Source of the DNA: a virus
Taxonomy: Duplodnaviria; Caudoviricetes
Strand: one strand, 5' to 3'
DNA: 64,000 nucleotides
IMG/VR virus record: IMGVR_UViG_3300001528_000580
Span: 128,001-192,000 of that record
In this document: positions 4,293-62,473 of the stretch, piece after piece
How the letters are laid out: every line of letters begins with the position of its first letter
Numbering within the stretch: the stretch's first letter is position 1
The notes under the pieces: model-generated
What the model was told of the DNA's origin: nothing
The model's input: only the letters and a program-made list of their open reading frames with translations
Database searches by the model: none
Position numbers and translations under genes: made by a program

Positions 4293-5789
4293 TTAATTTT
4301 TATTTTCAATTTTATAGTTAATAAAATCTCCAATAGTAACATCATAAATTTTCTTGTTGCTATTGTCATTACAAAAATGAACTAATTTTTCTACCATAGA
4401 CAAACGTTCAATAAACGTATTATAATCATAAGTAGATTTACAAAATCTAATTTCTACAGTATTTTCATTAGTGAAATTTACAGCATCACAATGAGCAGAC
4501 GAATCTCTTACTCCCCATTGATCTTCATTTTTATAATGTTTTTGGCAATAACCACCAAATTCTCTTCCCCCTATTTGTTGAAAATAATGTTCGTTATTAT
4601 TCACAATATAATCTAAAAGAGCAATAGAAATATTGTTTTTAAATGCCGTTCTATTTACGTGAAAATGCAGTCCACAATTGTTTACATCATTAACATCATT
4701 TTCATTTAAATGACGAAACAAATCTTTCCATTCATTATTACAATGATATTCGTATGTCGCTGGATGAGAAACAATCTCTACTCCACGAGTACAACTGAGA
4801 CTTCCATCTTGTTTGAAATAAAAGAACTTATTTTTATATACGTTTCTCAAAAAATTATTCCGTTCATATCTTTCATTTCCTTGAATTTCTAATTCAACAC
4901 CAATAAAGATGTTTTTATTTTGACCTACTACGGAATAAAAATGTGGATTAGGTTTATGAAAATAACTGGCAATAGCAATTTGTTCAAAACAACTATCACA
5001 AGGATCATTATGACCATTTTTATCTACATAATGACCACAAGTGTTACACTTTTTTGCATGATTGTTAATACAATTATCACAATACAAATACAAGATAAAT
5101 TCATTTTTTTTCGATATTGGATAATACTTATTACAGTCATAACATTCAAAATACTTGTTGTTGATACACGCAGTACAAAGACGTTTTTTTGTACCATCAA
5201 AAAGTGTGATAGTTTCAATATCATTCAGACTATTACATTCTTCACATGCTTCAAAATCTTTAGCGCACTTATTGCAATAAAATTTATTAATAATCCAATT
5301 TCTATCAACTTTATATTCATTTTTGAAAGTAGTGTCTATGAGACTATCACATTTTTCGCATTGAATAAGATAACTATTTGCACAACGTTTACAATAATAC
5401 CGTCCATTTATCTTAACAGTGTTAGGATTATTTTTCCAAACAATAGTAGTACAACGTTTACAATGTGCGCCAATATTGTTTAAGCATTGCTTACAAATAT
5501 ATTTGTCATTATAAGGATAGATTTCATCCGAAGAATGGTGTTTTCTGCAAGCCATACACTTGTATTTTTTATTTTTATCAAGATGAAAATGATTTTCAAA
5601 GCATTTATTACACATTTTCCAACCTCTAAATCTTCTGAAATTATCTTTGAAATCGTATGTACAGCAATTGCCGCACGAACAAATCTCATCGTTATTATTT
5701 AATTTATCATAACATTCACGACAGATATACTGGTCATTTCCGAAATTATAAAAGAAGGTAATAGTAGCTCCGCAATGACAACATTTCAT
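4293..5789 (-). CDS. Putative amidoligase (COOH-NH2 ligase fold), paralog 1, with about 16 N-terminal CxxC motifs
   Basis: GVELE, KQDGSL, EIVSHP, CGLHFH, AVN..TVEIRF; start revised to MKCCHC (RBS present; the longer start overlaps the promoter). Confidence 0.85.
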   Translation of the reverse strand: MKCCHCGATITFFYNFGNDQYICRECYDKLNNNDEICSCGNCCTYDFKDNFRRFRGWKMCNKCFENHFHLDKNKKYKCMACRKHHSSDEIYPYNDKYICKQCLNNIGAHCKRCTTIVWKNNPNTVKINGRYYCKRCANSYLIQCEKCDSLIDTTFKNEYKVDRNWIINKFYCNKCAKDFEACEECNSLNDIETITLFDGTKKRLCTACINNKYFECYDCNKYYPISKKNEFILYLYCDNCINNHAKKCNTCGHYVDKNGHNDPCDSCFEQIAIASYFHKPNPHFYSVVGQNKNIFIGVELEIQGNERYERNNFLRNVYKNKFFYFKQDGSLSCTRGVEIVSHPATYEYHCNNEWKDLFRHLNENDVNDVNNCGLHFHVNRTAFKNNISIALLDYIVNNNEHYFQQIGGREFGGYCQKHYKNEDQWGVRDSSAHCDAVNFTNENTVEIRFCKSTYDYNTFIERLSMVEKLVHFCNDNSNKKIYDVTIGDFINYKIENKN

Positions 5790-5834
5790 TTTGAATTTCC
5801 TTAAATAAAAAATTCTTGTTTTTGTTTGTAATAT

Positions 5835-5862
5835 ACTATACACCAAAAACAAGAAAATACAA
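5835..5862 (-). promoter_or_regulatory. Sigma70-like promoter of amidoligase 1
   Basis: TTGTAT-N16-TATAGT. Confidence 0.75.
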
Positions 5863-5889
5863 GTATATTTTTTATTTTTTTGCTATTTT

Positions 5890-6267
5890 TTATTTAAAAA
5901 ATTCTTCATAGTTAGGGTTTTTATACCAGTTAGTAATATAACCTTTTGAAATATTGAGATTAATATAATCTCCATATCCATCAGAATCAGGTATAGCTTT
6001 ATTAGGAACATAATTATCTTCAATAGAAGCAATTATGTTTTTGTTTTTGTCAAGAAGATAATAACTTCCAGAATCAACTGGTTTTGCAAAGAAATTATAA
6101 TCAATATCTTTAGGGAAATTAATTATTTCACCAGTTTCAACATCGACAATAATTTTCCAACGATCCCAACCATGTTTAGATTTTTCTCTACAAGGAAAAT
6201 CTTCTGGAATTTCATCATCATACATTACAGGAACATCAATTTTTAGGAATTTTATATCTTTCATCAT
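5890..6267 (-). CDS. Conserved phage hypothetical protein
   Basis: DGYGDYINLNI..G.I.NW motif; GGAG RBS. Confidence 0.7.
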   Translation of the reverse strand: MMKDIKFLKIDVPVMYDDEIPEDFPCREKSKHGWDRWKIIVDVETGEIINFPKDIDYNFFAKPVDSGSYYLLDKNKNIIASIEDNYVPNKAIPDSDGYGDYINLNISKGYITNWYKNPNYEEFFK

Positions 6268-6432
6268 TTATAACTCCATAAGATATTTTATTTTATTAAC
6301 AGAAAAAACAATCCATAACAATATACTTGTTAAATTCAAGATAATAGAAATAACAAATAACTTTTTATAGTTACAAATCATTCCAATAATCCAAAGCAAC
6401 AAAGCTACAATAGCAATAAAGTTATATATCAT
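6268..6432 (-). CDS. Small two-TM membrane protein (54 aa, not in ORF track)
   Basis: MIYNFIAIVALLLWIIGMICNYKKLFVISIILNL...; stop abuts next ATG. Confidence 0.5.
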   Translation of the reverse strand: MIYNFIAIVALLLWIIGMICNYKKLFVISIILNLTSILLWIVFSVNKIKYLMEL

Positions 6433-6559
6433 ATTAATTTCCTATTTATTATAAATTGATAAAAACAGAAAAATTGCAACAGCGATCATAATAATTGCGA
6501 TCATATTAACTCCATATATTTTTATAACATTAAAAGTTGCAATTTTTTCGTTTTTATCT

Positions 6560-6889
6560 TTAATAAGAATATTGTTTCCTTGATTTAACAATAAAAACTT
6601 TTCCGTTATCATAATCAATAAGATCAACATATTTCATCGAAAATTTTTCTTTCAATTGAATATCAAATTGATTAAATTTGTTAATCGTGTCAACATCAAA
6701 TTTTTTCAATCCATTGATATCTTGATCTGTTAAATCAATTTCAACATATTTCCAATCAGATTTGTTATAAGAATCATATTCTTCTGTAAGTCCTTCACAA
6801 TCAATTGTTTCAAAAATATCTTGTGTTACATTTTTGAATATTTTTGTATTGAGTTGTGAAAAATAATTATTGAAATTATAAACTGGCAT
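6560..6889 (-). CDS. Hypothetical protein
   Basis: AAGGAG RBS. Confidence 0.65.
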   Translation of the reverse strand: MPVYNFNNYFSQLNTKIFKNVTQDIFETIDCEGLTEEYDSYNKSDWKYVEIDLTDQDINGLKKFDVDTINKFNQFDIQLKEKFSMKYVDLIDYDNGKVFIVKSRKQYSY

Positions 6890-6958
6890 AATAGAATATT
6901 CTCCTTATATTTTGATATTAATATAATACATTAACAACTGTTTTGCAAGTTTATTTTT

Positions 6959-8592: not shown

Positions 8593-9159
8593 TTAATTTA
8601 TTAATTGTGTTTTGATAAAATCAGTTGAGTTCATCCATTGCTTATGTTCTAAAGAATAAACTTCTTCAAGCATTTCAATTAACAACGGGTTGTGGCAAGA
8701 TAAAATAAATTGATTGTTATTTTCACAACTATTTTTAATAGCATTTCCAAGCGTTTTGATTGACCTAATAGATAAAGACATATCAGGTTCATCAAGAATG
8801 ATAAGCGTATTCTTGACTTCTTCTATATGCTTTAAAATTGATTTATTAATTTCTCCATGAGATTTAAAATGTGAAAGTAATGCAAATTCATACAAATTTC
8901 CATCGTTTGCATATTTATCAAGATTACTTGTTCTTGTATTCATTTTTTCAAAATCAAAAAAGATAAAGTTCATTTTATCTTTCATAATAACTTTAATATA
9001 ACTTTTATCTTTATTTTTTGTATGTTCGACGATAGCTTTAATTAAAGAACTTTTGCCACAACCATTATCTCCAACAATAGGATTAATTTTTTTAAATTCA
9101 ATAACTAAATCTTTCTTTAAACATCTAAAATCTTTAACAAATGAAATTTTTTCAAGCAT
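8593..9159 (-). CDS. Small ABC/AAA-type ATPase
   Basis: Walker A GDNGCGKS, signature SHGE, Walker B ILDEPD, H-loop SCHNP. Confidence 0.85.
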   Translation of the reverse strand: MLEKISFVKDFRCLKKDLVIEFKKINPIVGDNGCGKSSLIKAIVEHTKNKDKSYIKVIMKDKMNFIFFDFEKMNTRTSNLDKYANDGNLYEFALLSHFKSHGEINKSILKHIEEVKNTLIILDEPDMSLSIRSIKTLGNAIKNSCENNNQFILSCHNPLLIEMLEEVYSLEHKQWMNSTDFIKTQLIN

Positions 9160-10697: not shown

Positions 10698-11675
10698 TTA
10701 AGCGGCAACATATTCCATTGCAGTATCAAAAGCGATATCTACAACCTTTTTACCGTTTCCGAAAAGGATGTTGTTACCACGATCTTTGATACGATTACCG
10801 CCAATATAATGTTCAACAGATTCTTCAACACCATTGAACAAACCATAAAGAGTGTTCACGATTCCAAGTTCCTTCGTGCCACTTCCCTTGTAAACGGACT
10901 CACGGAATGTCGAAAGAACATTGTTGGCAGTTGTCTTTGCCTTACCATCTTTCATTTCTTCAATGTCTTTGATGCTCATTCCATAGGCACGATCCATTAC
11001 CTTGTCAAGATAAGTATCAACAAATCCTGCATCGATTTTGACATCCAACATGCGCTTGAACGCATCGTTCTGCTTTTCAAAAGCAGCTTTGGTTTCAGAA
11101 TAAATCTTCCGAACTTCTTCCAAACGCATGTTCATCTTCATGGTATGTTTGATTTTATTCTTAATACCATCTTCGTTAAGAGCAACCTGCAACGTATTAT
11201 TGCAAACAACACGGATAGTTGTCGGCATAACCTGAACTGCACGACTTCCATCATGACTCCACATGAACAGAAGATACTGCTTCAAAACATCATCATGAAC
11301 AAGTTCAATCTCTCCTTGCTTGAGAAGAATCCAACACACTTCTCCATTACGCAAGGCTCCGGCAGTTTCATATGTCCACAAATCAGAAGTAATCAAAGGA
11401 TCACACCAACCAAATGCTTCTTTGTTCTGAAGGATATTATAACGTTCACGACAAGTTCCAAGAACTCTCATATCTTTATCACGAACAAGAGCAAACTCCT
11501 GTGTTTCATGGAGATTTCCATTGTGCTGAAACATAAGTGGAAATCTTTCCACTTTCCAATCAAGCCCACTTGCAACGTAGGCTTCATCTGTGTTGGGAGC
11601 ATCCGCAAGAACATTGCCAAGTCCATGCCATGCGTTTTGCCTGACGAAGAATCCAGATTCAAACAGAGCTGCCAT
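10698..11675 (-). CDS. DUF932/DUF945-family phage/plasmid protein
   Basis: AWHGLG, SGLDWKV, QNKEAF, ETAGAL..G, SHDGS, TTIRVVCNNTL motifs; own promoter, AGGAGG RBS and terminator. Confidence 0.9.
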   Translation of the reverse strand: MAALFESGFFVRQNAWHGLGNVLADAPNTDEAYVASGLDWKVERFPLMFQHNGNLHETQEFALVRDKDMRVLGTCRERYNILQNKEAFGWCDPLITSDLWTYETAGALRNGEVCWILLKQGEIELVHDDVLKQYLLFMWSHDGSRAVQVMPTTIRVVCNNTLQVALNEDGIKNKIKHTMKMNMRLEEVRKIYSETKAAFEKQNDAFKRMLDVKIDAGFVDTYLDKVMDRAYGMSIKDIEEMKDGKAKTTANNVLSTFRESVYKGSGTKELGIVNTLYGLFNGVEESVEHYIGGNRIKDRGNNILFGNGKKVVDIAFDTAMEYVAA

Positions 11676-12829: not shown

Positions 12830-13819
12830 TTATTTTTTATTTTGATCAATAACTTCCGCAAGTTTATTGAAGCATTCAATATTATTTAAAAATGATACAT
12901 ATAATTTCAATAATTTTCCTTTTCTTGTTACAATATCCTTCTTATCAATAGCTGAAAAAAATCTATTATAATCTTTAATACATATTGCTTTTTCTTTTAA
13001 TGATTTATTGAACATCTTAAAATTGAAAAAAAGTATTAAGGAATAAATAAACATTATTCTAAGATAAAATTCATTAATATCATTTGTTGATTTACAAAAT
13101 CTAAATTCAATTGTATTGGGATTTTCTAAATTTAAAATACAATATCTGTTAAATGTTGTTGAACCCCATTGATCATAATTTTTTCTTATACGTTGACAAT
13201 AATGATTTAATTTTCTTCCACCAATCTTTTCTAACATTTGTACAACTTTGCTATCGTTGATAAATAAATCAAGTAGAAATAATTCTCTTGAAGAAAAAAT
13301 CTCTTTATTTACATGAAAATGTAAACCACAATTTTTGTTTTTTGTCATTTCATATTTATTAATAAGATTAAAAATTTTATCCCATTTTGCATTTCTTAAA
13401 TGAAAATCAAAAGTACCAGGATGGCTTACAATCTCAACACCTTCATCTCCAATTGAACCGTCTCGTTTGAATATAAAAAAATTATTTTTATTAATTTTAT
13501 TACATTCTTTAATAAATTCATTAAAATAATATCCATCACGATTAATTGAATTAATTTCTAATTCAACTCCAATGACTTCTTTATCAACTCCGAATCTTTT
13601 CCACTTTGGCTTATAATAATGTGATTTAATAACATTACATATTGAACAAGTATGCTCAATACATAATCCCAAAAACTTTTTAGGTTTAAAATACCGATGA
13701 CATTTTCCACATCTCTTAAAATATTTTTCAAAACATTCTTCGCATAATGGTATGTTATCTAAATATACAATTTTGCCATATACTTCTTCATTACATTTAT
13801 TGCATTTCATATTTATCAA
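12830..13819 (-). CDS. Putative amidoligase, paralog 3 (about 4 CxxC)
   Basis: GVELE, KRDGSI, EIVSHP, CGLHFH, RYCILN..TIEFRF. Confidence 0.85.
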   Translation of the reverse strand: MINMKCNKCNEEVYGKIVYLDNIPLCEECFEKYFKRCGKCHRYFKPKKFLGLCIEHTCSICNVIKSHYYKPKWKRFGVDKEVIGVELEINSINRDGYYFNEFIKECNKINKNNFFIFKRDGSIGDEGVEIVSHPGTFDFHLRNAKWDKIFNLINKYEMTKNKNCGLHFHVNKEIFSSRELFLLDLFINDSKVVQMLEKIGGRKLNHYCQRIRKNYDQWGSTTFNRYCILNLENPNTIEFRFCKSTNDINEFYLRIMFIYSLILFFNFKMFNKSLKEKAICIKDYNRFFSAIDKKDIVTRKGKLLKLYVSFLNNIECFNKLAEVIDQNKK

Positions 13820-14549: not shown

Positions 14550-14558
14550 TTTAATTTC

Positions 14559-15296
14559 CTAAATAATATTTTTGTTTTTCAAAAGTGTTTTGATATATAA
14601 AGATTCTTCAAATCCGTTATTATTCAAAAAATCAACAAACATTTTGATATTATTTTTTACAGCAATATCAATAAAACTAGTTTGTTTAACAAATAATATA
14701 ATATTTCTAACAATAAATAATTTTTGTAAAAACATATTATATTGTGTTGGAGATAAGAAAAATCTCAATTCAATAGTTTCACTGTTTGTTAAATTAATTG
14801 CGTCACAATGATCGGAAATTACAGAAGAACCCCAATCATGAAATCTTTTATTTCTTCTTTTACAGTAATATCCAAATTCTCTATCTCCAAATGCTTCCAT
14901 CATTTCTTTATTATTATTAATAAAAAAATCAAGTGTTGCAATATTATCAATAGAGAATCCATTTTTGTTAATGTGAAAATGAAGTCCACAACCAGTATTA
15001 TCATACATCATTGTTTCTGATAAAATATCATATAATTTTTTCCATTTATTACTTTTAAGATGAAAGTCAAATGAAGCCGGATGACTTACAATCTCTATTC
15101 CTTTGCTACCAATACTTGCATCATTTTTACAATAGAAAAAACTATCGTTATCTAACATATATGAACATGTATATTTATCTTCTCCAATAATTTCCAGTTC
15201 AATGCCATAAAATTCATTGATATTTTTATTTAATCTTTTTTCTTCATCAGTTGTGAAAAATATTGGTTCAGGTTTAAAGCTATGTGACTGAATCAT
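14559..15296 (-). CDS. Putative amidoligase, paralog 5 (no CxxC array)
   Basis: GIELE, KNDASI, EIVSHP, CGLHFH, AIN..TIELRF. Confidence 0.85.
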   Translation of the reverse strand: MIQSHSFKPEPIFFTTDEEKRLNKNINEFYGIELEIIGEDKYTCSYMLDNDSFFYCKNDASIGSKGIEIVSHPASFDFHLKSNKWKKLYDILSETMMYDNTGCGLHFHINKNGFSIDNIATLDFFINNNKEMMEAFGDREFGYYCKRRNKRFHDWGSSVISDHCDAINLTNSETIELRFFLSPTQYNMFLQKLFIVRNIILFVKQTSFIDIAVKNNIKMFVDFLNNNGFEESLYIKTLLKNKNII

Positions 15297-15312: not shown

Positions 15313-16638
15313 TTAAATAGCTACTTCAAGAATTTCAACATTTTCCATCGATTTATTTGATTCCAAAAATGATTCAAACATTTTTATATTATCTTCAGTA
15401 ATAATTTCTTTGAATGTAACATTCATTGAAAAATTAACAATATCATGGATAAAATTAAGTCTTTTCATGAATGTAGTATAATCAGGTGTTGATTTACAGA
15501 ATCTCAATTCAATAGTTTCACTATTAGTCAGATTAACTGCATCACAATGACGAGAAGAATAGCTCATTCCCCAATTATTCATATCCTTTTCACGAGATGA
15601 GCAGTACCCATCCAGTTTTCTACCACCAATGTTAGCGATAAATTCAGGATTATTATTGACAAAATAATCTAATACACGAATTGCTTCTTCTGTAAAGAAA
15701 TTTCTGCTAATATGAAAATGTAAACCACAATTTTCAATATTATCCATACCATTGTTTTCAAGAATATCAAAAATTTTGTTCCAAATATTTGTTTTAGTAT
15801 GAAAATCAAAAGTACCAGGATGACTTACAATCTCAACACCATTATCTCCAATTGAACCATCATGCTTACAATAAACAAAGTCAATGTTATTGTTCAAATC
15901 ATAAGCGCAACAACTACGATCAGCGCCACGAATTTCTAATTCTACACCAATAAAAAGTTTGGTATATTCTCCATCATACCGTCTAAAACATGGTTCTGGC
16001 TTATATTCATATGGATAAATACCTTCTTCATCCTCTCCACCAGTTTCTTCATAACAATCATTACAAAGATTAGAACAACAGCTTTCCTGATCATTCGGAA
16101 AGAGTTGATCGCATCTTTCACACTGGAAAAAATATTCCCTACGACAATCATCACAAATGTAATTATTATCATAGTCAGTATTTGAATCTTCATATGGGCA
16201 AAATTCACCACATTCATTGCATTTAAAATGTGTTTTATCAATGCAATCAGCACAAATATGTTTGCAATCTGATGTTCTTATAATGTCATCGTTATTAAAA
16301 TGTTTTTGACAACTTTCACAAAAACTATACTCTTCAATACAGTTTTCGCATACCATCCCAATATTTTCTACATAATAATAATTGTCATTAATGGTATCAA
16401 TTTTTTCTCCACACTCTTCACAACAAGGTATCTCATTGTAACAGTCGGAACAATAGATATTTCCTTTGAACTCATTAATGTCTTCGGTCAACACGTCATC
16501 GCATTTTTCACATTTAGGAAGATTGTTATAACAATCGTCACAATAATGAAAATTTTTTACATTGTTATCTTCATTGTTATTAAATTGCTTTTCGCAATTA
16601 GAACAGACAAACATGTTTTTTTCATCTTCGTGCAACAT
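15313..16638 (-). CDS. Putative amidoligase, paralog 6 (about 12 acidic CxxC)
   Basis: GVELE, KHDGSI, EIVSHP, CGLHFH, AVN..TIELRF. Confidence 0.85.
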   Translation of the reverse strand: MLHEDEKNMFVCSNCEKQFNNNEDNNVKNFHYCDDCYNNLPKCEKCDDVLTEDINEFKGNIYCSDCYNEIPCCEECGEKIDTINDNYYYVENIGMVCENCIEEYSFCESCQKHFNNDDIIRTSDCKHICADCIDKTHFKCNECGEFCPYEDSNTDYDNNYICDDCRREYFFQCERCDQLFPNDQESCCSNLCNDCYEETGGEDEEGIYPYEYKPEPCFRRYDGEYTKLFIGVELEIRGADRSCCAYDLNNNIDFVYCKHDGSIGDNGVEIVSHPGTFDFHTKTNIWNKIFDILENNGMDNIENCGLHFHISRNFFTEEAIRVLDYFVNNNPEFIANIGGRKLDGYCSSREKDMNNWGMSYSSRHCDAVNLTNSETIELRFCKSTPDYTTFMKRLNFIHDIVNFSMNVTFKEIITEDNIKMFESFLESNKSMENVEILEVAI

Positions 16639-16739: not shown

Positions 16740-17714
16740 TCATTTTTTTTGCCGTAACAAAAGACAATCACAGCATATTTTTTTATTTACATCTTCAATT
16801 AACAAAGAATTATGATATTCTTTATTACATTCATCACAAGTAAAGAATTGTTTACTGATAGGAAGACTATCAATACCATATTCATCATAGCAATTCCAGC
16901 AAAAATCTTTTTTACCGATAGTTATTCCACCATAATCATCAAATCTTTCGTCACAAATACAACAAGTGGACAATTCTTTATGAATTTTACTGCCTCTTGT
17001 AAATCCAAGCATATTAATTTTGGTTCTCCAATTATCTTCATAGTCATGATTGGAATAAAAAACGCCATTATTGTTAATCCAATTACCAAATATTTTCCAT
17101 ATTCCATCATCTTTGAGAATAGCTATTTTATTATATCCAATTTCTCTACTAATTTGCTTTTGATATTTTGTTGAACCATTAATAGTTTCTTTAATCATAA
17201 ATTCCAAATTTTTATTAGGACTATCATTAATTAAATATTCCCACAAACTTTTTTCATTATTGGAATTTATATAAGTATCATTCAGCTCTTCAAACATCTT
17301 TAATGTAAAAAGCATTGTATCTGAAATAGTTCCTGTTGGATCGTATTTTTTAAAAGTAAATTTGGGATAGTGCAAAATACCGTTATGAATAAGTCCATAA
17401 CCATTGAAAGAAATATTCTTTTTTCTCAAATCAGAAATTGAATTTGTAATCGGAAAAGGATGGGTATTTCCTCCATCCCTTAATCCATGAGTTGCAATAC
17501 GAAAGTGAATAAATATAGTGTCTTGTTCAGTAAAATTTTCTGAACAAAATGCAGTATAGAAATCTTCAAAACTCATATACCCTTTTTTAATATGAAGTTG
17601 ATTGTTCCTAACAAACATGAATCCTGCACCATCAGGATTATTATTGAAACAATTTAAGAAAGATGCACGGTCAGGAATTTCAACATTTTTGGGTTTTACG
17701 ATAGCTATACACAT
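16740..17714 (-). CDS. Class II (Ntn) glutamine amidotransferase with C-terminal CxxC array, copy 1
   Basis: Cys2 nucleophile (MCIAIVKP), NPDGAG, HFRIATHG, NTHPF, HNG, SDT; 4 C-terminal CxxC. Confidence 0.9.
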   Translation of the reverse strand: MCIAIVKPKNVEIPDRASFLNCFNNNPDGAGFMFVRNNQLHIKKGYMSFEDFYTAFCSENFTEQDTIFIHFRIATHGLRDGGNTHPFPITNSISDLRKKNISFNGYGLIHNGILHYPKFTFKKYDPTGTISDTMLFTLKMFEELNDTYINSNNEKSLWEYLINDSPNKNLEFMIKETINGSTKYQKQISREIGYNKIAILKDDGIWKIFGNWINNNGVFYSNHDYEDNWRTKINMLGFTRGSKIHKELSTCCICDERFDDYGGITIGKKDFCWNCYDEYGIDSLPISKQFFTCDECNKEYHNSLLIEDVNKKICCDCLLLRQKK

Positions 17715-22998: not shown

Positions 22999-24639
22999 TT
23001 AAAATAAGCCTGAAATTTCTCCTGATTCATTTATTTTCATATTATCAGAATTAGGAATTGGTGGTAATCCTGGCATAGAAACAATACTTCCAGTATATAC
23101 AATAATAAATTTTGCTCCATTTGATATATCAATATCTTGAATAGTAATATCAAAATTAGTAGGAGCACCTAATAACTTTGGATTATCTGTAAAAGAATAC
23201 TGATTTTTTGCTATACATATTGTATAGTTGTCAATATCAATGAATTTTCTCATTGTTAATAATTTTGATTTTGCTTTACTACTATAATTGACACTATCAG
23301 CTTTATATATTTCTCTACATATTTTTTCTATTTTAATTTCAATGGGATCATTTATATCATATGTAAAATGAACATTTTTAACATTTTCGCAATATTGAAT
23401 TATTCTTTCAGCTAATTCAATACCACCTGAAAATCCATCTTTATAAGTACTATTTAATTCATATTTCATATTAAATTCATTACACAAACTATCAAATGTT
23501 TCATAATCATCTTTAGTATCAGAATCAAACATATTAAGTGCGATAATAACATTTGAACAAAACTTTTTCAAATTGTCATAGTGTCTCTTTAAGTTAGAAA
23601 ATCCTCTTTTAATATCATCTTTTCCATTATATTTAATAGATTGTATTGTTGCTACTAATACAATACAGTTAGGTATTATATTAGCATATCTACACTTAAT
23701 GTTAAAAAACTTTTCAGCTCCTAAATCAGCTCCAAAACCTGCTTCTGTAATAACATAATCAGCTAATTTTAATGCTGTTTTAGTTGCAATAATAGAATTA
23801 CAACCATGTGCTATATTCGCAAATGGACCACCATGAATTAAAGCACCTGTTCCTGCTAATGTTTGAACTAAATTAGGTTTTATTGCATCTTTCAATAATA
23901 TAGCCATAGCTTCATTAGCATTGATGTCTTTAGCCTTAATTAATTTATTATCATAACTATATCCAATTATAATTTCACCTAATTTATTTTTTAAATCAAT
24001 TAATGATTCTGACAAACAAAAAATTGCCATAATTTCAGATGCAGAAGTTATACTAAAATGTTCTTCTCTAGTATAACCATCAATATTATTCCCTAATCCA
24101 ACAACAATATTTCTTAACATTCTATCGTTTAAATCAATACATCTTTTAAATGTTATTGTTTTAGGATTTATATTTAATTTGTTACCATGAAATATATGAT
24201 TGTCAATTAATGATGCTAATAGATTATTTGCAGAAGTTATAGCATGAAAATCTCCAGTAAAATGTAAATTAATATCTTCCATTGGAATAACTTGAGAATA
24301 TCCACCACCAGTTGCCCCACCTTTGATCCCAAATACTGGTCCTAAAGATGGTTGTCTTAAAGCAAGTAATGCATGTTTATTTTTATTTTTTAAAACAAAA
24401 TTCAAAGCATCTGCTAGTCCAATAGAACATGTTGTTTTACCATTCCCATATTTTGTTGGACTAATAGATGTAACAAGAATTAGTTTACCGTTTTTATTGG
24501 TATTTATTTTTTCATAATCAATTTTTGCCATATTCTTTCCGTATGGAATAATATAATCTTCATTTATTCCATTGCTTTTGGCAATTTCATATATATCTTT
24601 TATTTTAACACTATGAGAAATTGTAATATCATCTTTCAT
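22999..24639 (-). CDS. fhs: Formate--tetrahydrofolate ligase
   Basis: GKTT, RQPSLGPVFGIKGGATGGGYSQV, NLHFTGDFHAIT, HGGPFANIAHGCNS, TEAGFGADLGAEKF, MPGLP; start revised to MKDDI (AAGGA RBS). Confidence 0.97.
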   Translation of the reverse strand: MKDDITISHSVKIKDIYEIAKSNGINEDYIIPYGKNMAKIDYEKINTNKNGKLILVTSISPTKYGNGKTTCSIGLADALNFVLKNKNKHALLALRQPSLGPVFGIKGGATGGGYSQVIPMEDINLHFTGDFHAITSANNLLASLIDNHIFHGNKLNINPKTITFKRCIDLNDRMLRNIVVGLGNNIDGYTREEHFSITSASEIMAIFCLSESLIDLKNKLGEIIIGYSYDNKLIKAKDINANEAMAILLKDAIKPNLVQTLAGTGALIHGGPFANIAHGCNSIIATKTALKLADYVITEAGFGADLGAEKFFNIKCRYANIIPNCIVLVATIQSIKYNGKDDIKRGFSNLKRHYDNLKKFCSNVIIALNMFDSDTKDDYETFDSLCNEFNMKYELNSTYKDGFSGGIELAERIIQYCENVKNVHFTYDINDPIEIKIEKICREIYKADSVNYSSKAKSKLLTMRKFIDIDNYTICIAKNQYSFTDNPKLLGAPTNFDITIQDIDISNGAKFIIVYTGSIVSMPGLPPIPNSDNMKINESGEISGLF

Positions 24640-24652
24640 ATTATTTTCCTTA

Positions 24653-25132
24653 TTATTTAACTTTATCAAAAATAAACAAATTTGGTATTTTGTTTAATAT
24701 TGGTTCTATATTATTTCTTACAAAACTTATTTCTAAATTACCATTACTACATCCTGGCATTGGCAAATATATATTATAATTATGATTTAAATATTTTTTT
24801 TCATATGCCATTAATAATTCTTTACATGACATTTTTATTAAATCAATATCTGAATCATCTTTCCAGTGATATTTTGTTTGAAATGATAATATTCTATTGT
24901 TATTATATTTTCCTAAAAAATGAACAAATTTAAAATCAGATGATATTTTATTTGATAAATATTTACCAAGTACAATTGAGGTTTCAGGATAATAAGAATT
25001 AATTATCTTAGCTATTCCTGCACCCATCACAGCATTACCATCTTTTTTTATTATACCGTTTGTCGTTACACAGAAATATTTATCTTCACTATCTGATAAT
25101 ATATCTTCTGCATTTTTATAAATATATATCAT
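24653..25132 (-). CDS. Macrodomain (ADP-ribose binding/hydrolase) protein
   Basis: TTNG..K.DG.AVMGAGIAK, FQTK.HW, PMPGCSNG.L. Confidence 0.85.
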   Translation of the reverse strand: MIYIYKNAEDILSDSEDKYFCVTTNGIIKKDGNAVMGAGIAKIINSYYPETSIVLGKYLSNKISSDFKFVHFLGKYNNNRILSFQTKYHWKDDSDIDLIKMSCKELLMAYEKKYLNHNYNIYLPMPGCSNGNLEISFVRNNIEPILNKIPNLFIFDKVK

Positions 25133-33545: not shown

Positions 33546-33624
33546 ATAGTAGATCTCCTTATCTATAGGAATTGATTTTCCTTTGACAATAGACTATTAT
33601 AAAATTTTGTTTAATGAAATCTTA

Positions 33625-33969
33625 TTAAAAATGATTTTTATTATATGCCATGCTTAAATAACTTTTTTTCATTTTATTAAAATATTCATCTTTATTAATT
33701 GAATCAAAATATTCAACTTTATTTAATAAATGAAAATTATCATTATCTTCAACTTCAATTGGAACATTTCTATTTTTATGTCTAATAAAACATTCCATTT
33801 TATAAACATTAACATATATTCTTTTAGGAACACCACCAATTTTAACCATAAATGGTGTATAAAAAATATGTTGTTTTCTTGTAACTCCAAAACGATCAAC
33901 AAAAAATGCATTTTGATTTAAAATATATGGAGTAATTTTTTTTATTATATTATATTTATTAATTTTCAA
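33625..33969 (-). CDS. Hypothetical protein
   Basis: ORF directly after rtcB. Confidence 0.55.
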   Translation of the reverse strand: MKINKYNIIKKITPYILNQNAFFVDRFGVTRKQHIFYTPFMVKIGGVPKRIYVNVYKMECFIRHKNRNVPIEVEDNDNFHLLNKVEYFDSINKDEYFNKMKKSYLSMAYNKNHF

Positions 33970-33970
33970 T

Positions 33971-35652: not shown

Positions 35653-35664
35653 AATATCATTCCT

Positions 35665-36210: not shown

Positions 36211-36536
36211 ATCTCTCTTTCTATTTCTTTTTTGTATTTTTCATACTCTTTATCATGTGTTATAATATCATTATCTTCTAAAAACTTATTATTGATAGAA
36301 TCAAAATAAATATCTACACTATAATTACAAGACTCACATTGGTATTCTACACAAGAGTCTAAATAATCTGGTTCAATTCTTTTAAATCTTTTTCCACATT
36401 TAGAACAAAAACCATTATTAAATTTTATTGTTTGTTTTCTCTTTTCAATTGAATTTATTTGAAACAAGGTTAATAACTCACTTATAATGTAAGAAACAAT
36501 AATTAAAGAAATGGCAAATCCAATCATGTTAATCAT
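36201..36536 (-). CDS. Membrane-anchored zinc-ribbon protein
   Basis: TM helix, CSKC and CESC. Confidence 0.6.
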   Translation of the reverse strand: MINMIGFAISLIIVSYIISELLTLFQINSIEKRKQTIKFNNGFCSKCGKRFKRIEPDYLDSCVEYQCESCNYSVDIYFDSINNKFLEDNDIITHDKEYEKYKKEIEREICL

Positions 36537-36702
36537 CCTTGTATAATTTTTTTAATTTTATTTTTGCATTCTTCTTCAAATACCCATCAAAATATATAGC
36601 ACCACATCTATTGTAAAATCCAGAATTATATTTGCTCTTTTCATAATATATAAAAAACACTATGAAAAGAGCTATTGAAATAATTAAAAACATAAATTCC
36701 TT

Positions 36703-37770
36703 TTATTTTTCTGCTAAAAGGTATTTGTTGTTAATACATTTAAAACTATTTCTACCATCAATACTTTTAAATACACAACCTTCTTTTCTATTACCTCTTT
36801 CAGTTTTACCATCAACAAATTTTAACATCTTTTCTAATGTATCAAGTTCATTAAAAACATCCATACTTGGATTAATAACTCTTACATGTTTCAAACCATA
36901 TTTTTTACAAATTTCATAGCGTTCATTTGGTGTAAAATACCTACGGTTATTAATGTCGAAAATATTGAATACAAAGAAATCATGTTCAGTGTAACGATCT
37001 CTATTTCCATTTATTCCAGGACCAACAAGTTCACCTTGAAAAGCGATTTCTTCACCATAGAATTTCATTTTTTCTGGTAATTCGTATTTATGAGCAACCG
37101 ACCAATAAATATTTTTATCTTTATCATAGTATTCTGTTTGTCTATTACAAACACCAACTGGATCATCTGGTCTATTTACAATAGAATGAAAACATGTCAT
37201 TGAAGCCCCATCATATTTATCAGTAACTTCCCACAATGTTCCTTTAAGTTCAGTGAAGAAATGAGCAAAATTTTGAATACGTTCTTCATCTGTTTTATTT
37301 ACAAATGAAGGAAATGATGCTTTAAATTCACCGTCAAGAGTTATTTTTCCAGTAATTTTATCCCATTCGAGAGCAACATCATCAAAATGTTTAACTCTCA
37401 AAATATTAGTTACATCATCGTCAATATTAAAATCTTTAAGTTCTGGGAACAATGCAATTGGAAGAATCAACCCTTGTGAAATAACTCCACGAAGGTTAAT
37501 TGTTCTAATTCTAATTGTTTCAAAAACATTTTTTTCTCCAATTGTCCAAGCACGTTTGCAACGCTCTTTAAGAAATTCATAGCGTTTGTCTTCAATAGGA
37601 AGCGCAGAATCAATTTCAAAGTAAACGGCAATATCATCCTTTTTAAAATTATCATTGATATGACAAACTACTTCCCAACCTTTACCACACATAGTGACTT
37701 TGACAAGAAAATCTGAATCTTTAATTTTTTCAACATTATTAATTTTCACAATACTGGCTAATTTTCTCAT
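36703..37770 (-). CDS. RNA ligase, DRB0094 (Rnl5) family
   Basis: MRKLASI N-terminus, LRGVISQGL, KTDEERIQN, KYDGAS (motif I), QGELVGPGI, EGCVFK, SFKCIN.KYLL. Confidence 0.92.
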   Translation of the reverse strand: MRKLASIVKINNVEKIKDSDFLVKVTMCGKGWEVVCHINDNFKKDDIAVYFEIDSALPIEDKRYEFLKERCKRAWTIGEKNVFETIRIRTINLRGVISQGLILPIALFPELKDFNIDDDVTNILRVKHFDDVALEWDKITGKITLDGEFKASFPSFVNKTDEERIQNFAHFFTELKGTLWEVTDKYDGASMTCFHSIVNRPDDPVGVCNRQTEYYDKDKNIYWSVAHKYELPEKMKFYGEEIAFQGELVGPGINGNRDRYTEHDFFVFNIFDINNRRYFTPNERYEICKKYGLKHVRVINPSMDVFNELDTLEKMLKFVDGKTERGNRKEGCVFKSIDGRNSFKCINNKYLLAEK

Positions 37771-40879: not shown

Positions 40880-41830
40880 TTAACAAACTTCACAATATTT
40901 GCAACATGTTACAAGAACATTATTATAATCTGAACTTAATACTTCTTTTTTAAATTCTTCAATTACCTCTTTTGAAATTTTTGCTACTCTCATTGCTTCA
41001 CAACATTTTCCAATTAAAGAAAATGCATTTCCATCTGTACCAACAAGTTTTACTTTTGGTTTTTTATTACTAATTTTTTTGTCGTTCCAATCATAAACTT
41101 TTGACATTGAACATTCATTATTAATAATATCGTTACACAAAGAGTTAATTAATTTTTCCCATTCATTTGATAATTCATAAAAGGCATTGTCAATAGTACC
41201 ATCACCAGTGAATGAAAAATCATTATAATATCCTTTTCCTGAACATTCAGAACATTGTTCATCATCTTCTTCATTGATAAAATATCCCATTCCATTGCAT
41301 TCTGGACATTCTTCTTTTTCACCATCTACATCAACATATCCACAACCATCACAATTACTGCAATTTTCTTCTGTTTGTTCTCCTGAAAAATAACCAATTC
41401 CATCACAATTATCACACGATTCATGATCAATATGACTTGCAAAATAATTCATAATATTATCAAATTTAATTGTAATTTCATTTTTTTCAAAATATTTTTT
41501 AAACAAACTATGCATTTCTTCAAAAAGATCAATATTATCTGACTTTTTTGAAAAAAATCCCTTACCAATAGTTTCAAACGATGCATATCCATTATCAAAA
41601 TATTGTTGATGTCCACCGTTATTAACTTGATAAGTATAATTCATAAGGTTAATAATTAAGAAAATTCTTTCATCAAGTTCAAGAAGATAATTATAACATT
41701 CTTCTGTTTCCATATCTTCAGAAAATAATTTTCTTGTTTCATGAATGATCGCAGAAATTTTATCGTTTTCTTTAAATTCTTTTGAGTTAATAATATTATT
41801 GATAAAAACATTCCGTTCAAAATTAATCAT
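40880..41830 (-). CDS. DUF4375/DMP19-like domain, DnaJ-type CxxCxGxG zinc finger and small C-terminal domain
   Basis: YQVNNGGHQQYFDNGY; four CxxCxGxG repeats; VKLVGTDGNAFSLIG. Confidence 0.75.
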   Translation of the reverse strand: MINFERNVFINNIINSKEFKENDKISAIIHETRKLFSEDMETEECYNYLLELDERIFLIINLMNYTYQVNNGGHQQYFDNGYASFETIGKGFFSKKSDNIDLFEEMHSLFKKYFEKNEITIKFDNIMNYFASHIDHESCDNCDGIGYFSGEQTEENCSNCDGCGYVDVDGEKEECPECNGMGYFINEEDDEQCSECSGKGYYNDFSFTGDGTIDNAFYELSNEWEKLINSLCNDIINNECSMSKVYDWNDKKISNKKPKVKLVGTDGNAFSLIGKCCEAMRVAKISKEVIEEFKKEVLSSDYNNVLVTCCKYCEVC

Positions 41831-47739: not shown

Positions 47740-47770
47740 AAAAAAGGAGCGAATATTCGCTCCTTTTTTT
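47740..47770. terminator. Bidirectional terminator
   Basis: Perfect palindrome AAAAAAGGAGCGAATATTCGCTCCTTTTTT. Confidence 0.9.
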
Positions 47771-48741
47771 TATACTAATAAATCAATATATTTATTACAA
47801 ATATCTTCAATCATATCTTTACCTTGAAGACAATGAATCCATTGTTTAGGAATACTATCAAAACCAAAATATGCTCCAGCAAGTGAACCATATATTGCAC
47901 CATAAGTATCTGAATCTCCTAATTTATTAATTGCCATTATCATTCCTGTTTTAAAATCATTAGCTTTTTCAAAACATTCCATTGCTAAATAGTAACTATA
48001 TACAATATTACCAGAAGCAGATTTTTCATAAAGTTCTTCAACTGTTATTGTATCTGAAAGAACTTCATTACAAACATTCATAAAAGAATATCTTTCTGGT
48101 GTGATACATTCTTTATCTACACATAAAAATGCATCTCTAATAGCTAAAGCGTATAACATTGTGAAATTCTTACAAATATTATTATTATGAGTCGTTTTTG
48201 CACTTTCAGAGGCAAAATAAGCGCACTCAACAGGAGAATCGATGAAGTATAAGGGTATTGGCAATATTCGCATTAGAGAGCCGTTTCCAAGCGTTGTTTC
48301 ATTACCATTAAAAATAGTTCCATTATCTTTAAAATTTTTTAATGCGTCTCTTGTTGCTCCACCTGATCCTATTGATTTTTCACAGCAAGATAAATATCCA
48401 TTATAAAGCCACTCATAATATTTTTTTAACTGGTCATTATAATTAAAACCATTTTCAATTAATGAATATGCAAGACATAGCATCATAGAAGTATCATCTG
48501 TCCATGTTCCAGCAGGTAAATCTTTAAAATTGTCATGACCATTTAAAGTTCCACCATGTAACATTTGTGTTACTAATCCAATTCTATCTCTCTCACTTTT
48601 ATTTTGAAATTCTACTGGCATACCAAGAGCATCACCAACTGCGCAGCCATAGAAAGCACCTTTTATTTTATTAATAATTGCATCTTTATTGCCAAACATT
48701 AGATATGTAAATTCTTTTTTTGTCATTTTTATGGTTCCCAT
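47770..48741 (-). CDS. ADP-ribosylglycohydrolase (DraG/ARH family)
   Basis: AVGDALG, WTDDTSM, GNGSLMR, TH, GDSDT.GAI.GSLAGA; start may be 48726. Confidence 0.93.
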   Translation of the reverse strand: MGTIKMTKKEFTYLMFGNKDAIINKIKGAFYGCAVGDALGMPVEFQNKSERDRIGLVTQMLHGGTLNGHDNFKDLPAGTWTDDTSMMLCLAYSLIENGFNYNDQLKKYYEWLYNGYLSCCEKSIGSGGATRDALKNFKDNGTIFNGNETTLGNGSLMRILPIPLYFIDSPVECAYFASESAKTTHNNNICKNFTMLYALAIRDAFLCVDKECITPERYSFMNVCNEVLSDTITVEELYEKSASGNIVYSYYLAMECFEKANDFKTGMIMAINKLGDSDTYGAIYGSLAGAYFGFDSIPKQWIHCLQGKDMIEDICNKYIDLLV

Positions 48742-56030: not shown

Positions 56031-57050
56031 TTAAAATATTTTTCTAGCTTTAGCTTTTTTATATAATAAATTATATTTATCTTTATTGTTAAAGATATAT
56101 GATGCATACTCTGCAACAGTTTTATTATTTTCCCATACAGAAATAGTTTTTATAAAATTAATTAAAGAATGTACTAATTGGAGTCTTTCAATAAATGTAT
56201 TATAACAAAAAGTAGAACTAAAAATTCTAAATTCAATAGTATTTTTACCCATAAAATTTATCATTTGATATCTATTCATTGATTTTCCCCAACCATCATT
56301 ATGTTTATTTGCTCTATAACAATAATAGTTAGGATTTCTGCCTGTAAAATTTCTCATGAATTCAAAATTATTATAGAAAAATAAATCAATATTTCTATTA
56401 TCTTTTTCAGTTAATATATCTTTATTAACATGAACATGCATACCGCATCCTCTTCTACTATTAATTTTGTAGAGAGATAAATCTTTCATTATTTTGTTCC
56501 AACCAAGTTTATTTTCATGAAATTTTAATGAACATGGATGACTAACAATTTCAACACCATATGCAGGTATACTACAATCACTTTTAAAATATAATAATTT
56601 GTCTGATATATCATCAAAATATGATCTACAAAAATTATTAACATTTTCTATTTTATCACAACCACCCACTTCTAATTCTACACCCATAAATATATTATCA
56701 GTATCATTTTCATCTAAATGAAATACTGGTTCAGGCTTATAAGAATATTGGAAAATAGGGTGTTTAAAACAATTGAAACAAACATTTTCATAATCAGTTT
56801 TAAAATTATCAGTAATAAATTTATTACAAATTTTACATACAGATAATTTACTAGAACATTCTTTACATATCAATAAATTATAACAACTTATATATAATTC
56901 ATTTACTTTAAAACAATTTCTACATAACTCACACCGACAAAAATTAAATGAACAACGTAAACATAAATATGCTTCTTTTTTAAACTCACCGTTTATCATT
57001 ACATTTTCATACTTTTTACCTTCATGATTATGACATTCAAAACACAACAT
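56031..57050 (-). CDS. Putative amidoligase, paralog 9 (6 CxxC)
   Basis: GVELEVGG, KSDCSIP.YG, EIVSHP, CGMHVH, RYQMIN..TIEFRI. Confidence 0.85.
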   Translation of the reverse strand: MLCFECHNHEGKKYENVMINGEFKKEAYLCLRCSFNFCRCELCRNCFKVNELYISCYNLLICKECSSKLSVCKICNKFITDNFKTDYENVCFNCFKHPIFQYSYKPEPVFHLDENDTDNIFMGVELEVGGCDKIENVNNFCRSYFDDISDKLLYFKSDCSIPAYGVEIVSHPCSLKFHENKLGWNKIMKDLSLYKINSRRGCGMHVHVNKDILTEKDNRNIDLFFYNNFEFMRNFTGRNPNYYCYRANKHNDGWGKSMNRYQMINFMGKNTIEFRIFSSTFCYNTFIERLQLVHSLINFIKTISVWENNKTVAEYASYIFNNKDKYNLLYKKAKARKIF

Positions 57051-57308: not shown

Positions 57309-57340
57309 AAATGGCTATCAAAAAATTTGATAGCCATTTT
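57309..57340. terminator. Bidirectional terminator
   Basis: AAATGGCTATCAAA/TTTGATAGCCATTT. Confidence 0.85.
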
Positions 57341-58533
57341 TATTTTCTTATAGATAATTTCATTTCTTTTGCATATTGATTAATAAAATTTAAATTTTCT
57401 TTGGATACAACCTTATTATATTTTTCTTTCATTTGAACAATACTATTGTTATTAAGATTAATTTCAATTGTAACTCTTTGTGTAACATCACTTCTTAAAG
57501 ATACAATTGCACATCTTCCATTTTTACAAGAGCTAATATAACTATAAACGCAATTACATTGTGATTGTCCCTCTTTTTTTAATTCTTGTGCTTTTGTTAA
57601 TTCTATAAATTTAACACTATCATTTAATGTATAACTTAAACCAAATTCATCCCATGATGAATTATCATTTCTTGTATTTTCTCTTGTTAATTCATTGTGC
57701 CACTCCTCACAAAGTCTAATCATACTATTAATATTTCTTCCTGAAAGATTAAATTTATCTATATTATTACCATTAATTATATAATCTAATATTTCTGTTA
57801 TACAATTATAATCAAATAATGGTTGTTTTGATAACCATGTACAAAATCTTCTTGAAAAATTAATAACTCTACTTTTATCATAATTTGCAAAAGTCTTTTT
57901 ATCAAAATAACTCGATATTTCCATTGATAAATCAATATTACAACTTTGTGCTCTTGCAAATAAATAAACAAGAAATCCTAATTCTGAATCGAATGGATAA
58001 TTAGTTTCATAAAGGTACTTATTTTCAGTTTTAGAAAGTCCATATACTTTTCTGGCAGAAGTACCATTTCCAATTAATATCGTTCTTTCTAAAATTGGAT
58101 TTTCAACAATAGAATAAGATTTTCTCCAAAAATTATAAAAACATGCAGGAACATTATATTCAAAAATATAATGAAAAATAAACTGATTTAACTGATTATC
58201 ATAATTATGAGATTTAAAGTTGATATTATCATCTATATTATCTTTTATATAATTATTAAAAATAGATAAATTTTTTAATACACGAAAAAAATCATTACTT
58301 CTATCAGTTTTATTTGCAAAATAACTATAATTACGATTCAGCCGTTCTTCTGAACACTTCATTTTATTTTTTATTGCAGAAGTTATTAATCTAGAAAAAC
58401 AAGATAAAACCTTATCATCATTTCTTGAAATATAATCAATATTTACATTCCATGAATCTAAATGAAAATTTTTCAAATATTTTTTTGGTAAATTGATAGG
58501 GTATTTTTGAAAAATTAAAACATCTTGCATCAT
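57340..58533 (-). CDS. PcfJ-like protein
   Basis: EWH, EL....L.KEG..Q.NCVYSY...C..G...I.SLR, TIEI, IVQ...YN. Confidence 0.8.
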   Translation of the reverse strand: MMQDVLIFQKYPINLPKKYLKNFHLDSWNVNIDYISRNDDKVLSCFSRLITSAIKNKMKCSEERLNRNYSYFANKTDRSNDFFRVLKNLSIFNNYIKDNIDDNINFKSHNYDNQLNQFIFHYIFEYNVPACFYNFWRKSYSIVENPILERTILIGNGTSARKVYGLSKTENKYLYETNYPFDSELGFLVYLFARAQSCNIDLSMEISSYFDKKTFANYDKSRVINFSRRFCTWLSKQPLFDYNCITEILDYIINGNNIDKFNLSGRNINSMIRLCEEWHNELTRENTRNDNSSWDEFGLSYTLNDSVKFIELTKAQELKKEGQSQCNCVYSYISSCKNGRCAIVSLRSDVTQRVTIEINLNNNSIVQMKEKYNKVVSKENLNFINQYAKEMKLSIRK

Positions 58534-61204: not shown

Positions 61205-61238
61205 ACATTTTTCCTTACTTTTTGTTTTGACTTTAACT

Positions 61239-61266
61239 AATATAGCACATGGTTTGTAAAAAGCAA
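61239..61266 (-). promoter_or_regulatory. Sigma70-like promoter
   Basis: TTGCTT-N16-TATATT with TGTG extension. Confidence 0.75.
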
Positions 61267-61288
61267 ATTTTTTCAGAAATTTTTTTGC

Positions 61289-61377
61289 ATATATATAATT
61301 AATATTTATTAATATAATTAATTAATAATTAATAATATAAATATAATTAATATATATATTATAATTATATTTTATAT
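61289..61377. other. 89-nt tract containing only A and T, imperfectly palindromic
   Basis: No G or C between C61288 and C61378; lies between divergent promoters. Confidence 0.85.
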
Positions 61378-61410
61378 CTATATTTTTTAATAAAAAATAA
61401 CAAAAAAAAT

Positions 61411-61438
61411 TTGCAATTTTCTAAAAATGTAATATATT
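61411..61438 (+). promoter_or_regulatory. Sigma70-like promoter of GATase 2
   Basis: TTGCAA-N16-TATATT. Confidence 0.7.
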
Positions 61439-61474
61439 ATTCTAAATTGAATAACAAAATAGGAATTTTGCCAA

Positions 61475-62473
61475 ATGTGTATTGCTATTGTAAAACCTGT
61501 TAACAAATCAATTCCGAGTAATGATATTTTAATAAAATGTATGAATAACAATCCTCATGGAGCTGGATATGGTTTTTTCAGAAATGGTGAATTAAATATA
61601 AAAAAGGGATTTCTTTCTTTTTATGATTTAAAAAGATCATTAGATGAAGATAATATTCAAGAAGATGAACCAGCATTTTTTCATTTTAGGAAAGCATCTT
61701 TTGGTGGATTAGATATAAGAAAAACTCAACCATTTCCATTATCTAATTCTACTGATTTTATGATGAAGAAACATGTTATAGGATGTCGGTTTATTTTCAT
61801 GCACAATGGTACGGTAAAATATACTGATGAAGAATATGAACCGTTTAAAGAACGTTATGCATATGAAAGAAGCATTTCAGATACTATGCTGTTTGGAATA
61901 AATGTTTGGAATAAAGTTATTAATCCTTATGCAAAAAATGATTATTCTATTGAATCATTAGTTTCAAAATATATTCTTAAAGGTGATAAAGTAACAAAAA
62001 AGCAAATAGATTATTGTATAGAAAATAATAAGTTTGCTTTTATGAATGATGAAGGTAAAATTACATTATTTGGAAGAGGATGGAAGGTAAGGGATGGACT
62101 TGTTTATTCAAATGATAAATATTTTAATGATAAATACGAATCATCAAATTTAAAGCCAGTTAGACAATGTAATTTTTGTTATACAAAGACAACTAATTAT
62201 GAATATGGTGATGATGTAGTTTATTGCAAAAATTGTGAAAAAGAAAGATTGAATAAAGAACCAAGTAATTCGTTTAAGTGTCAAGAATGTGGAAATTTGT
62301 TTTTAAAAAGTGAACAATCTTCATTGATTAAAGACATATGTTCTGAATGTGAAAAAAATAATCATACATGTAGTCATTGTGAATCAGTATTTATAAGCGA
62401 AAGTTCTCTTGCTTATGGTAATGAAGGAAATGAAAAATATTGTCAAAAGTGTTTATTGCAGGTATGTTATTAA
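61475..62473 (+). CDS. Class II glutamine amidotransferase with C-terminal CxxC array, copy 2
   Basis: MCIAIVKP, NPHGAG, HFRKASFG, TQPF, HNG, SDT; 6 C-terminal CxxC. Confidence 0.88.
   Translation: MCIAIVKPVNKSIPSNDILIKCMNNNPHGAGYGFFRNGELNIKKGFLSFYDLKRSLDEDNIQEDEPAFFHFRKASFGGLDIRKTQPFPLSNSTDFMMKKHVIGCRFIFMHNGTVKYTDEEYEPFKERYAYERSISDTMLFGINVWNKVINPYAKNDYSIESLVSKYILKGDKVTKKQIDYCIENNKFAFMNDEGKITLFGRGWKVRDGLVYSNDKYFNDKYESSNLKPVRQCNFCYTKTTNYEYGDDVVYCKNCEKERLNKEPSNSFKCQECGNLFLKSEQSSLIKDICSECEKNNHTCSHCESVFISESSLAYGNEGNEKYCQKCLLQVCY

Follow-up and report, generated by a model that had tools for sequence, protein, structure and literature searches.

The 64,000-nucleotide stretch analysed here (the window) comprises bases 128001-192000 of the 440,868-bp virus record IMGVR_UViG_3300001528_000580, which has direct terminal repeats and 25% GC and is a complete gut jumbo phage of 441 kb, near-identical DNA being present in pig, bovine and other gut runs. 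The window carries nine genes for ligases of the Amidoligase_2 type (PF12224) and two for class II glutamine amidotransferases (GATases), many of them with arrays of CxxC motifs, and these form part of a set of 18 ligases and 13 GATases in the phage genome (31 genes, 32.4 kb, 7.35% of the genome). Judged from sequence, the feature is a lineage-specific expansion of a two-gene phage ligase/GATase module; the enzyme pair and its CxxC fingers are already known, whereas the growth in copy number and the keeping of pseudoenzymes appear to be new. The ligase family, a very large one, was predicted in 2009. The expansion provides a natural series from one genetic background: copies range from finger-less to eight-fingered and arrays from acidic to basic, and some copies have an altered pocket or are dead. 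It could thus be tested directly whether target choice lies with the fingers and whether the GATase acts as donor or eraser. That 7.4% of the genome is given to the family, and that diverged relatives conserve it, suggests that it matters greatly in infection.

Composition of the ligase and GATase families

The relevant genes of the window are listed below in window coordinates, to which 128000 is added to obtain genome coordinates.

4293..5789, minus strand: ligase paralog 1; 16 CxxC (8 fingers); open reading frame (ORF) open from 5852, likely ATG at 5789; ortholog P0007/L229
11799..12818, minus strand: ligase paralog 2; 6 CxxC; ortholog in L101
12830..13810, minus strand: ligase paralog 3; 4 CxxC; likely ATG at 13810; PF12224 E 2e-6, above cut-off; ortholog in L101
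13797..14549, minus strand: ligase paralog 4; no fingers
14559..15296, minus strand: ligase paralog 5; no fingers; model of glutamine synthetase (GS)/glutamate-cysteine ligase (GCS) fold, predicted local distance difference test (pLDDT) 96
15313..16638, minus strand: ligase paralog 6; 12 CxxC; acidic LIM-like array
16740..17714, minus strand: class II N-terminal nucleophile (Ntn) GATase 1; Cys2 nucleophile; 4 C-terminal CxxC; L101 ortholog at 63% identity
41861..43372, minus strand: ligase paralog 7; 12 CxxC; ortholog in L228
50609..51604, minus strand: ligase paralog 8; 6 CxxC; PF12224 E 4.5e-7; ortholog P0008 at 50%
56031..57050, minus strand: ligase paralog 9; 6-7 CxxC; PF12224 E 4e-5
61475..62473, plus strand: class II GATase 2; Cys2; 6 C-terminal CxxC; glutamine-binding loop altered (HFRKASFG, QPF)
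13400..13459, minus strand: gene-conversion patch in the core of paralog 3; 57/60 nt identical to paralog 6, against 46-48/60 in the L101 orthologs
15799..15858, minus strand: partner gene-conversion patch in the core of paralog 6, matching that of paralog 3
2634..3320, minus strand: M28 peptidase; PF04389 E 1e-13; neighbour of paralog 1, judged to lie outside the system

The nine ligase ORFs and their five core motifs, as well as the C-terminal CxxC motifs of both GATases, had been recognised in an initial annotation made from the letters alone and are all intact. Its CxxC counts hold for paralogs 1 to 8; paralog 9 has 7, including one overlapping CxxCxxC, rather than the 6 given. GATase 1 does head the five-gene ligase array, ending 101 nt before paralog 6. 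The family extends far beyond the window. A profile of the nine window cores retrieved nine further ligases (genome 220218, 240565, 270183, 271187, 277490, 278811, 281039, 285505 and 296141), and a GATase profile eleven further GATases (genome 231928, 233172, 233937, 234880, 235963, 272906, 274005, 275092, 276647, 279956 and 282223). GATases are interleaved with ligases at genome 270-283 kb, and several ligase paralogs stand alone. The stop codon of paralog 5 is a TAG in frame with paralog 4 (window 14550-14561), an arrangement not kept in L101. Read-through fusing the two proteins was considered, a CUA tRNA being encoded, and was rejected because a relative carries TAA and a second stop there.

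The window ligase cores share 31-48% mutual identity; three of the nine match PF12224 above its cut-off and four more do so weakly. Sequence searches of the PDB with the ligase as query gave no match. The model of paralog 5, built from 122 sequences, predicts that the core is a GS/GCS fold without preference for the Pup ligase PafA: all 18 solved chains with Z of at least 8 are GS, GCS or Pup-ligase proteins, and the next unrelated fold has Z 6.0. YbdK ranks first (Z 11.2; root-mean-square deviation 3.6 over 204 aa), GS has Z 10.7, Dop ranks sixth (Z 10.0) and PafA seventeenth (Z 9.0). The annotated membership of the COOH-NH2 ligase fold is thus borne out by the model, and the special link to PafA drawn with it is not. 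The closest Atlas models (TM score 0.84-0.86) fall in clusters that are 92-93% PF12224, and one cluster at 92% is also 65% LIM.

The presumed metal- and ATP-binding residues (ExE, E, HxH and ExR) are invariant in 17 of the 18 ligases and all are lost in the copy at genome 271187. Arg159, conserved in 92% of outside ligases, aligns to His in paralogs 1, 2, 4, 5, 6 and 8, so that the active-site pocket has diverged as well. Among the GATases, 10 of 13 keep the N-terminal Cys, HxR, the HNG oxyanion hole and the Asp of SDT; those at genome 272906, 276647 and 282223 are without the Cys nucleophile and the HFR/HNG motifs and are referred to as dead. The GATases align to GFAT 1xff at E 4e-8, with Cys1, Arg71, Asn110-Gly111 and Asp125 kept and invariant. 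In GFAT these residues hold the free alpha-amino and alpha-carboxylate groups of a glutamyl substrate, so that the GATase substrate should be Gln or a gamma-glutamyl amide and not peptide-bound Gln. The position of GFAT Arg26 is Asn in 97% of the GATase family, for which GATase_4 (PF13230) is the commonest Pfam match, weak in strength, in 36 of 43 members.

Expansion and conservation of the copies

The ligase family comprises 13,863 clusters at 50% identity (E<=0.001). The outside comparison set consisted of 196 loci in 83 independent groups. One ligase with one GATase is the usual state (130/196 loci), and no conserved third gene was found among the 83 groups. Of 50 whole viral records, 38 carry one ligase, 11 two and a single record four, and the ligase matches in cultivated phages are all single-copy (25/25). 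Marvin (gp105/106), MEP402 (gp06/07) and a C. difficile phage have one ligase each. The early impression of a copy number far above the phage norm is therefore upheld, 49 of the 50 records having one or two ligases. The 18 ligases form one clade (FastTree support 0.96), as do the 13 GATases (0.996), each excluding the outside loci and including the metagenomic orthologs. No comparable expansion was described in the literature searched. Smaller, independent expansions were seen in three unrelated contigs, namely L059 (IMGVR_UViG_3300035698_009306) with four ligase-GATase pairs, L141 with four ligases and two GATases, and L143 with three and two.

Searches of the viral collection with RecA and DUF932 yielded no close relative genome. 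Relatives preserve the blocks gene for gene, dead copies included: in L101 the GATase and five-ligase array is present at 47-69% identity together with a sixth ligase gene, in L109 the array of five GATases follows Cas12a, and L227 and L103 keep the mixed ligase/GATase cluster with its dead copies. Core dN/dS (the ratio of nonsynonymous to synonymous rates) is 0.03-0.46 for catalytic copies and 0.15 for the dead GATase at genome 282223, values which are rough because dS is near saturation. By these comparisons the copies are stable orthologous lineages under purifying selection. Redundant amplification, in which tandem duplicates of a single activity would be kept for dosage while their arrays drift, would account for the tandem arrangement, the patchy gene conversion of cores and the extra sixth gene of L101, but is the least probable of the explanations weighed, as every copy, dead and finger-less ones too, is in place in phages 45-85% identical, with the core dN/dS given above and fixed array sizes.

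The CxxC counts lie above chance, shuffles of the arrayed window ligases giving means of 0.7-3.3 motifs. For the most part, spacers of about 12-24 alternate with shorter ones of about 5-9, as in C4 fingers joined by short linkers. These had been labelled zinc ribbons; the arrays match LIM and treble-clef profiles better, LIM being the most frequent profile match (PF00412 in 11 of 46 arrays at E<=0.1; best Pfam E 1.7e-13) and CRP1, PINCH and FHL the best PDB matches, so that they are probably LIM-type treble-clef fingers rather than ribbons. Full-length paralog 6 folded without an alignment reached a pLDDT of only 38.5, which is uninformative on the fingers. The array of paralog 6 is strongly acidic, as first described (net -30, pI 4.1), and that of paralog 1 is basic (pI 8.5), though no more so than several others. 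Nor are arrays a special design of the study phage, as had been supposed: at least two N-terminal CxxC occur in 174 of 203 complete outside ligases (range 0-14), mostly in one-pair loci, which makes the finger-plus-ligase design the family norm, and CxxC motifs are also found in 72 of 159 GATases.

In 20 of 23 ortholog pairs the array is kept less well than the core (for paralog 2, 33% against 59%). Near-identical variants of paralog 6 differ at 38 of 193 sites in the array and at 16 of 215 in the core (p 0.0004); no such excess was seen in three of four other within-species clusters. Array dN/dS is below 1 (0.13-0.64). The number of CxxC motifs is the same in 17 of 23 ortholog pairs and finger-less copies remain finger-less; no DNA patch shared between any two arrays was found, and the gene conversion between paralogs 3 and 6 affects their cores. 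Since the arrays evolve faster than the cores yet stay with them, the suggestion of exchangeable adaptors is not supported, and the copies resemble enzymes with settled specialisations rather than a system that swaps cassettes. In the dead GATase at genome 276647 the array is better kept than the core (70% against 61%, one comparison), which indicates a binding role.

Possible functions of the module

In GS/GCS-type chemistry, ATP activates a carboxylate as an acyl phosphate, which is then attacked by an amine. The reading favoured here, tentatively and at rather less than an even chance, is that the ligases mark intracellular proteins with gamma-glutamyl amides, each paralog having its own targets, and that the GATases erase the marks. 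The ligase would use ATP to phosphorylate the gamma-carboxyl of free glutamate, and the activated glutamate would be joined to an amine, probably a Lys or the N-terminus, of a host or phage protein bound by the finger array; the GATase, steered by its own fingers, would hydrolyse the gamma-glutamyl amide. Separate copies would serve separate targets, most plausibly in host takeover or counter-defence, and the dead and finger-less copies may be non-catalytic or partner-dependent subunits. All members are probably cytoplasmic, because none has a clearly hydrophobic segment of 19 residues (the most hydrophobic such window in any member averages 1.58).

The GATase_4 family includes stand-alone gamma-glutamyl hydrolases such as EgtC. 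Writing and erasing is favoured because the GATases own finger arrays, cluster separately and carry Asn at position 25, and because a gamma-glutamyl cyclotransferase (GGCT), which removes gamma-glutamyl groups, adjoins related phage amidoligases (PMC11318856, PMC3890496). Fingers on both enzymes, together with the cluster of five GATases that has no adjoining ligase, fit independent target binding. The GS/GCS fold of the ligase, the likeness of the arrays to LIM fingers, which bind proteins, the faster divergence of arrays than of cores and the altered pocket also count in favour of this reading. Phages infecting Mycobacterium, Methylophilales and C. difficile have the pair, and it has been reported in archaeal viruses; such a spread argues for a substrate that all cells share. 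A protein is preferred over envelope precursors because these hosts have unlike envelopes and the long arrays suggest a macromolecular surface.

Several points weigh against such a system. A writer and an eraser co-expressed without a third enzyme risk a futile ATP cycle; in the PDB sequence search the GATases score better against GFAT (E 4e-8) than against YafJ-like proteins of solved structure (E 9e-5); ligase paralogs 4 and 5 have no fingers at all; the LIM matches may reflect CxxC spacing alone, and treble-clef fingers bind nucleic acids too; and the faster change of the arrays may reflect relaxed constraint rather than an arms race. In its fullest form, the proposal envisages that gut jumbo phages of one clade have built a single ligase/hydrolase pair into a reversible system of protein gamma-glutamylation with many targets. 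Its 17 writers and 10 erasers would be joined by 4 regulatory pseudoenzymes, and LIM-like arrays would direct each of these to host proteins of its own. This version is doubtful as a whole; if true, it would represent a code of post-translational modification in phages that is unrelated to either ADP-ribosylation or phosphorylation.

The main rival, somewhat less likely than the favoured reading, is a two-subunit glutamine-dependent amidotransferase similar to GatCAB or MurT-GatD. The GATase would free ammonia from Gln and the ligase would activate and amidate a macromolecular carboxylate (a Glu or Asp side chain, a C-terminus or a charged tRNA), different paralogs forming different heterocomplexes. 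The GATase gene directly follows the ligase for 60 of 99 outside ligases, no third enzyme is conserved, all Gln-binding residues are retained, and GatB/GatE distantly share the fold (Z 4.0-4.6). One dead GATase without fingers, whose gene overlaps the stop codon of a live ligase, is held by purifying selection (82% identity, dN/dS 0.15), as would be expected of a structural subunit; ligase and GATase also co-diverge (Mantel r 0.87), for which linkage alone accounts. In the study phage, however, the two families lie mostly in separate arrays and in unequal numbers, the diverse arrays of the GATases themselves are left unexplained, and the Arg26 position of GFAT is Asn. A complex predicted for the adjacent pair at genome 278811/279956 scored 0.00, no evidence either way.

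The standing proposal in the literature, made in 2009 for phiEco32 (PMC10580990, PMC11706807), is modification of the cell envelope or of small metabolites: cytoplasmic wall precursors or small amines would be amidated or glutamylated, blocking superinfection, and the paralogs would widen the range of substrates or hosts. The proteins of solved structure closest in fold act on small molecules, and the genome encodes an Asp/Glu racemase-like gene (L014:12370-13335; genome 312370-313335, minus strand; PF01177 E 1e-6, below cut-off) and a single gamma-glutamylamine cyclotransferase (GGACT; L012:18412-18771; genome 210412-210771; PF06094 E 8e-24). Neither is linked to any paralog, the ligase nearest to GGACT being about 9.4 kb away, small substrates give little reason for arrays of as many as eight fingers, and the same pair recurs across hosts with very unlike envelopes, the reported archaeal viruses included, which together render this explanation improbable. 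It is more improbable still that the fingers bind nucleic acid and that DNA, tRNA or a nucleotide is the target of modification (for example, DNA or tRNA of the phage, or a nucleotide used in signalling). Treble-clef matches of the GATA, XPA and DksA/TraR types, the mostly neutral to basic arrays and the richness of the phage in tRNAs and RNA-repair genes would suit such a role; the array of paralog 6 and several GATase arrays are, on the contrary, acidic (pI 4.1-4.7), and no linkage to nucleotide-modifying genes occurs in the 83 outside groups.

Functional proposals for the ligase/GATase pair in the literature are predicted roles only (PMC10580990, PMC11706807). The closest known counterparts are Marvin gp105/gp106 and the OM43 phages MEP401/MEP402 (PMC10580990), which have the same PF12224 ligase (tblastn E 1e-8 to 1e-11) and partner gene and, in Marvin, CxxC arrays in matching positions (5 and 4 CxxC). 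They differ in having one pair per genome, against 18 + 13 partly uncoupled genes with pseudoenzymes and finger-less copies here. The phiEco32/LUZ24 cassette (Iyer et al. 2009, as cited in PMC3890496 and PMC11318856) likewise combines Amidoligase_2 and a class II GATase, in phage early regions, and adds a PF14395 ligase, an ATP-grasp enzyme and GGCT; the study phage has no linked GGCT. A PF14395 search, run without a positive control, gave no match, ATP-grasp had no direct search, and the ligase neighbours are other paralogs.

EgtA/EgtC pair a GCS-type ligase of the GS fold with a class II gamma-glutamyl hydrolase, an Ntn enzyme of the GATase_4 type as here, but act on small molecules with further pathway enzymes and without finger arrays. 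PafA and Dop share the GS/GCS fold and the gamma-glutamyl-to-amine chemistry proposed here, and differ in being no closer than GS or YbdK; the present enzymes have a minimal core of 245 aa and an Ntn GATase partner. No Pup-like tag, Dop or proteasome gene was identified, no direct search for a Pup tag being made, and no small neighbour is conserved in the 83 groups. Another jumbo phage, Bacillus phage G, likewise has a large family of zinc-binding paralogs, a lineage-specific expansion of about 35 zinc-ribbon copies described as possible transcription factors or DNA-binding proteins (PMC7824862), whereas in the study phage two enzyme families carry the fingers as fusions; a term search of that survey found 'amidoligase' in a reference only.

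Neighbouring genes and genomic context

The M28 peptidase does lie in the paralog 1 operon, three genes downstream in an overlapping run. Its proposed role as the eraser of the mark was rejected, since there is one copy of the gene and it does not recur as a neighbour of the module, and the link is considered incidental.

A DUF932 gene (window 10698-11675; 86% identity in L101) closes the ligase array and is followed by a strong terminator (10684-10651); DUF932-like genes adjoin the ligase/GATase pair in four outside groups too. Directly downstream of paralog 7, the gene at window 40880-41830 fuses a weak DMP19-like (DNA-mimic) N-terminal match to a zinc region of the DnaJ/anti-TRAP type. An AAA/ABC-type ATPase gene (L003:9939-10898; genome 271939-272898) stands between the dead ligase and a dead GATase and is not at that position in L103; a shorter, similar ATPase occurs at window 8593-9159. 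Genes for formate-tetrahydrofolate ligase, ClpP-like, RtcB, RNA ligase, ADP-ribosylglycohydrolase and PcfJ-like proteins are located at window 22999-24669, 32535-37770, 47770-48741 and 57340-58533.

The phage genome also encodes 33 tRNAs, the PolIII alpha subunit, RecA, an NAD-dependent ligase and Cas12a with a 14-repeat array (L001:15292-19850; genome 227292-231850). The latter lies directly upstream of the five-GATase cluster, and the Cas12a gene and its position are also kept in L109 and L232; the 13 spacers of its array have no second match in the phage genome. Enrichment of early promoters near family genes is weak (6/31 against 43/512; 13/31 against 155/512), and a regional scan was at chance level. 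In the relative L103, the orthologs of genome 282826 and 283665 (L103:11244-12608) are full of in-frame stops under table 11, which suggests stop-codon recoding in that relative. A tRNA with a CUA anticodon is present at genome 256421 of the study phage; recoding across its whole genome was rejected, its genes being read normally.

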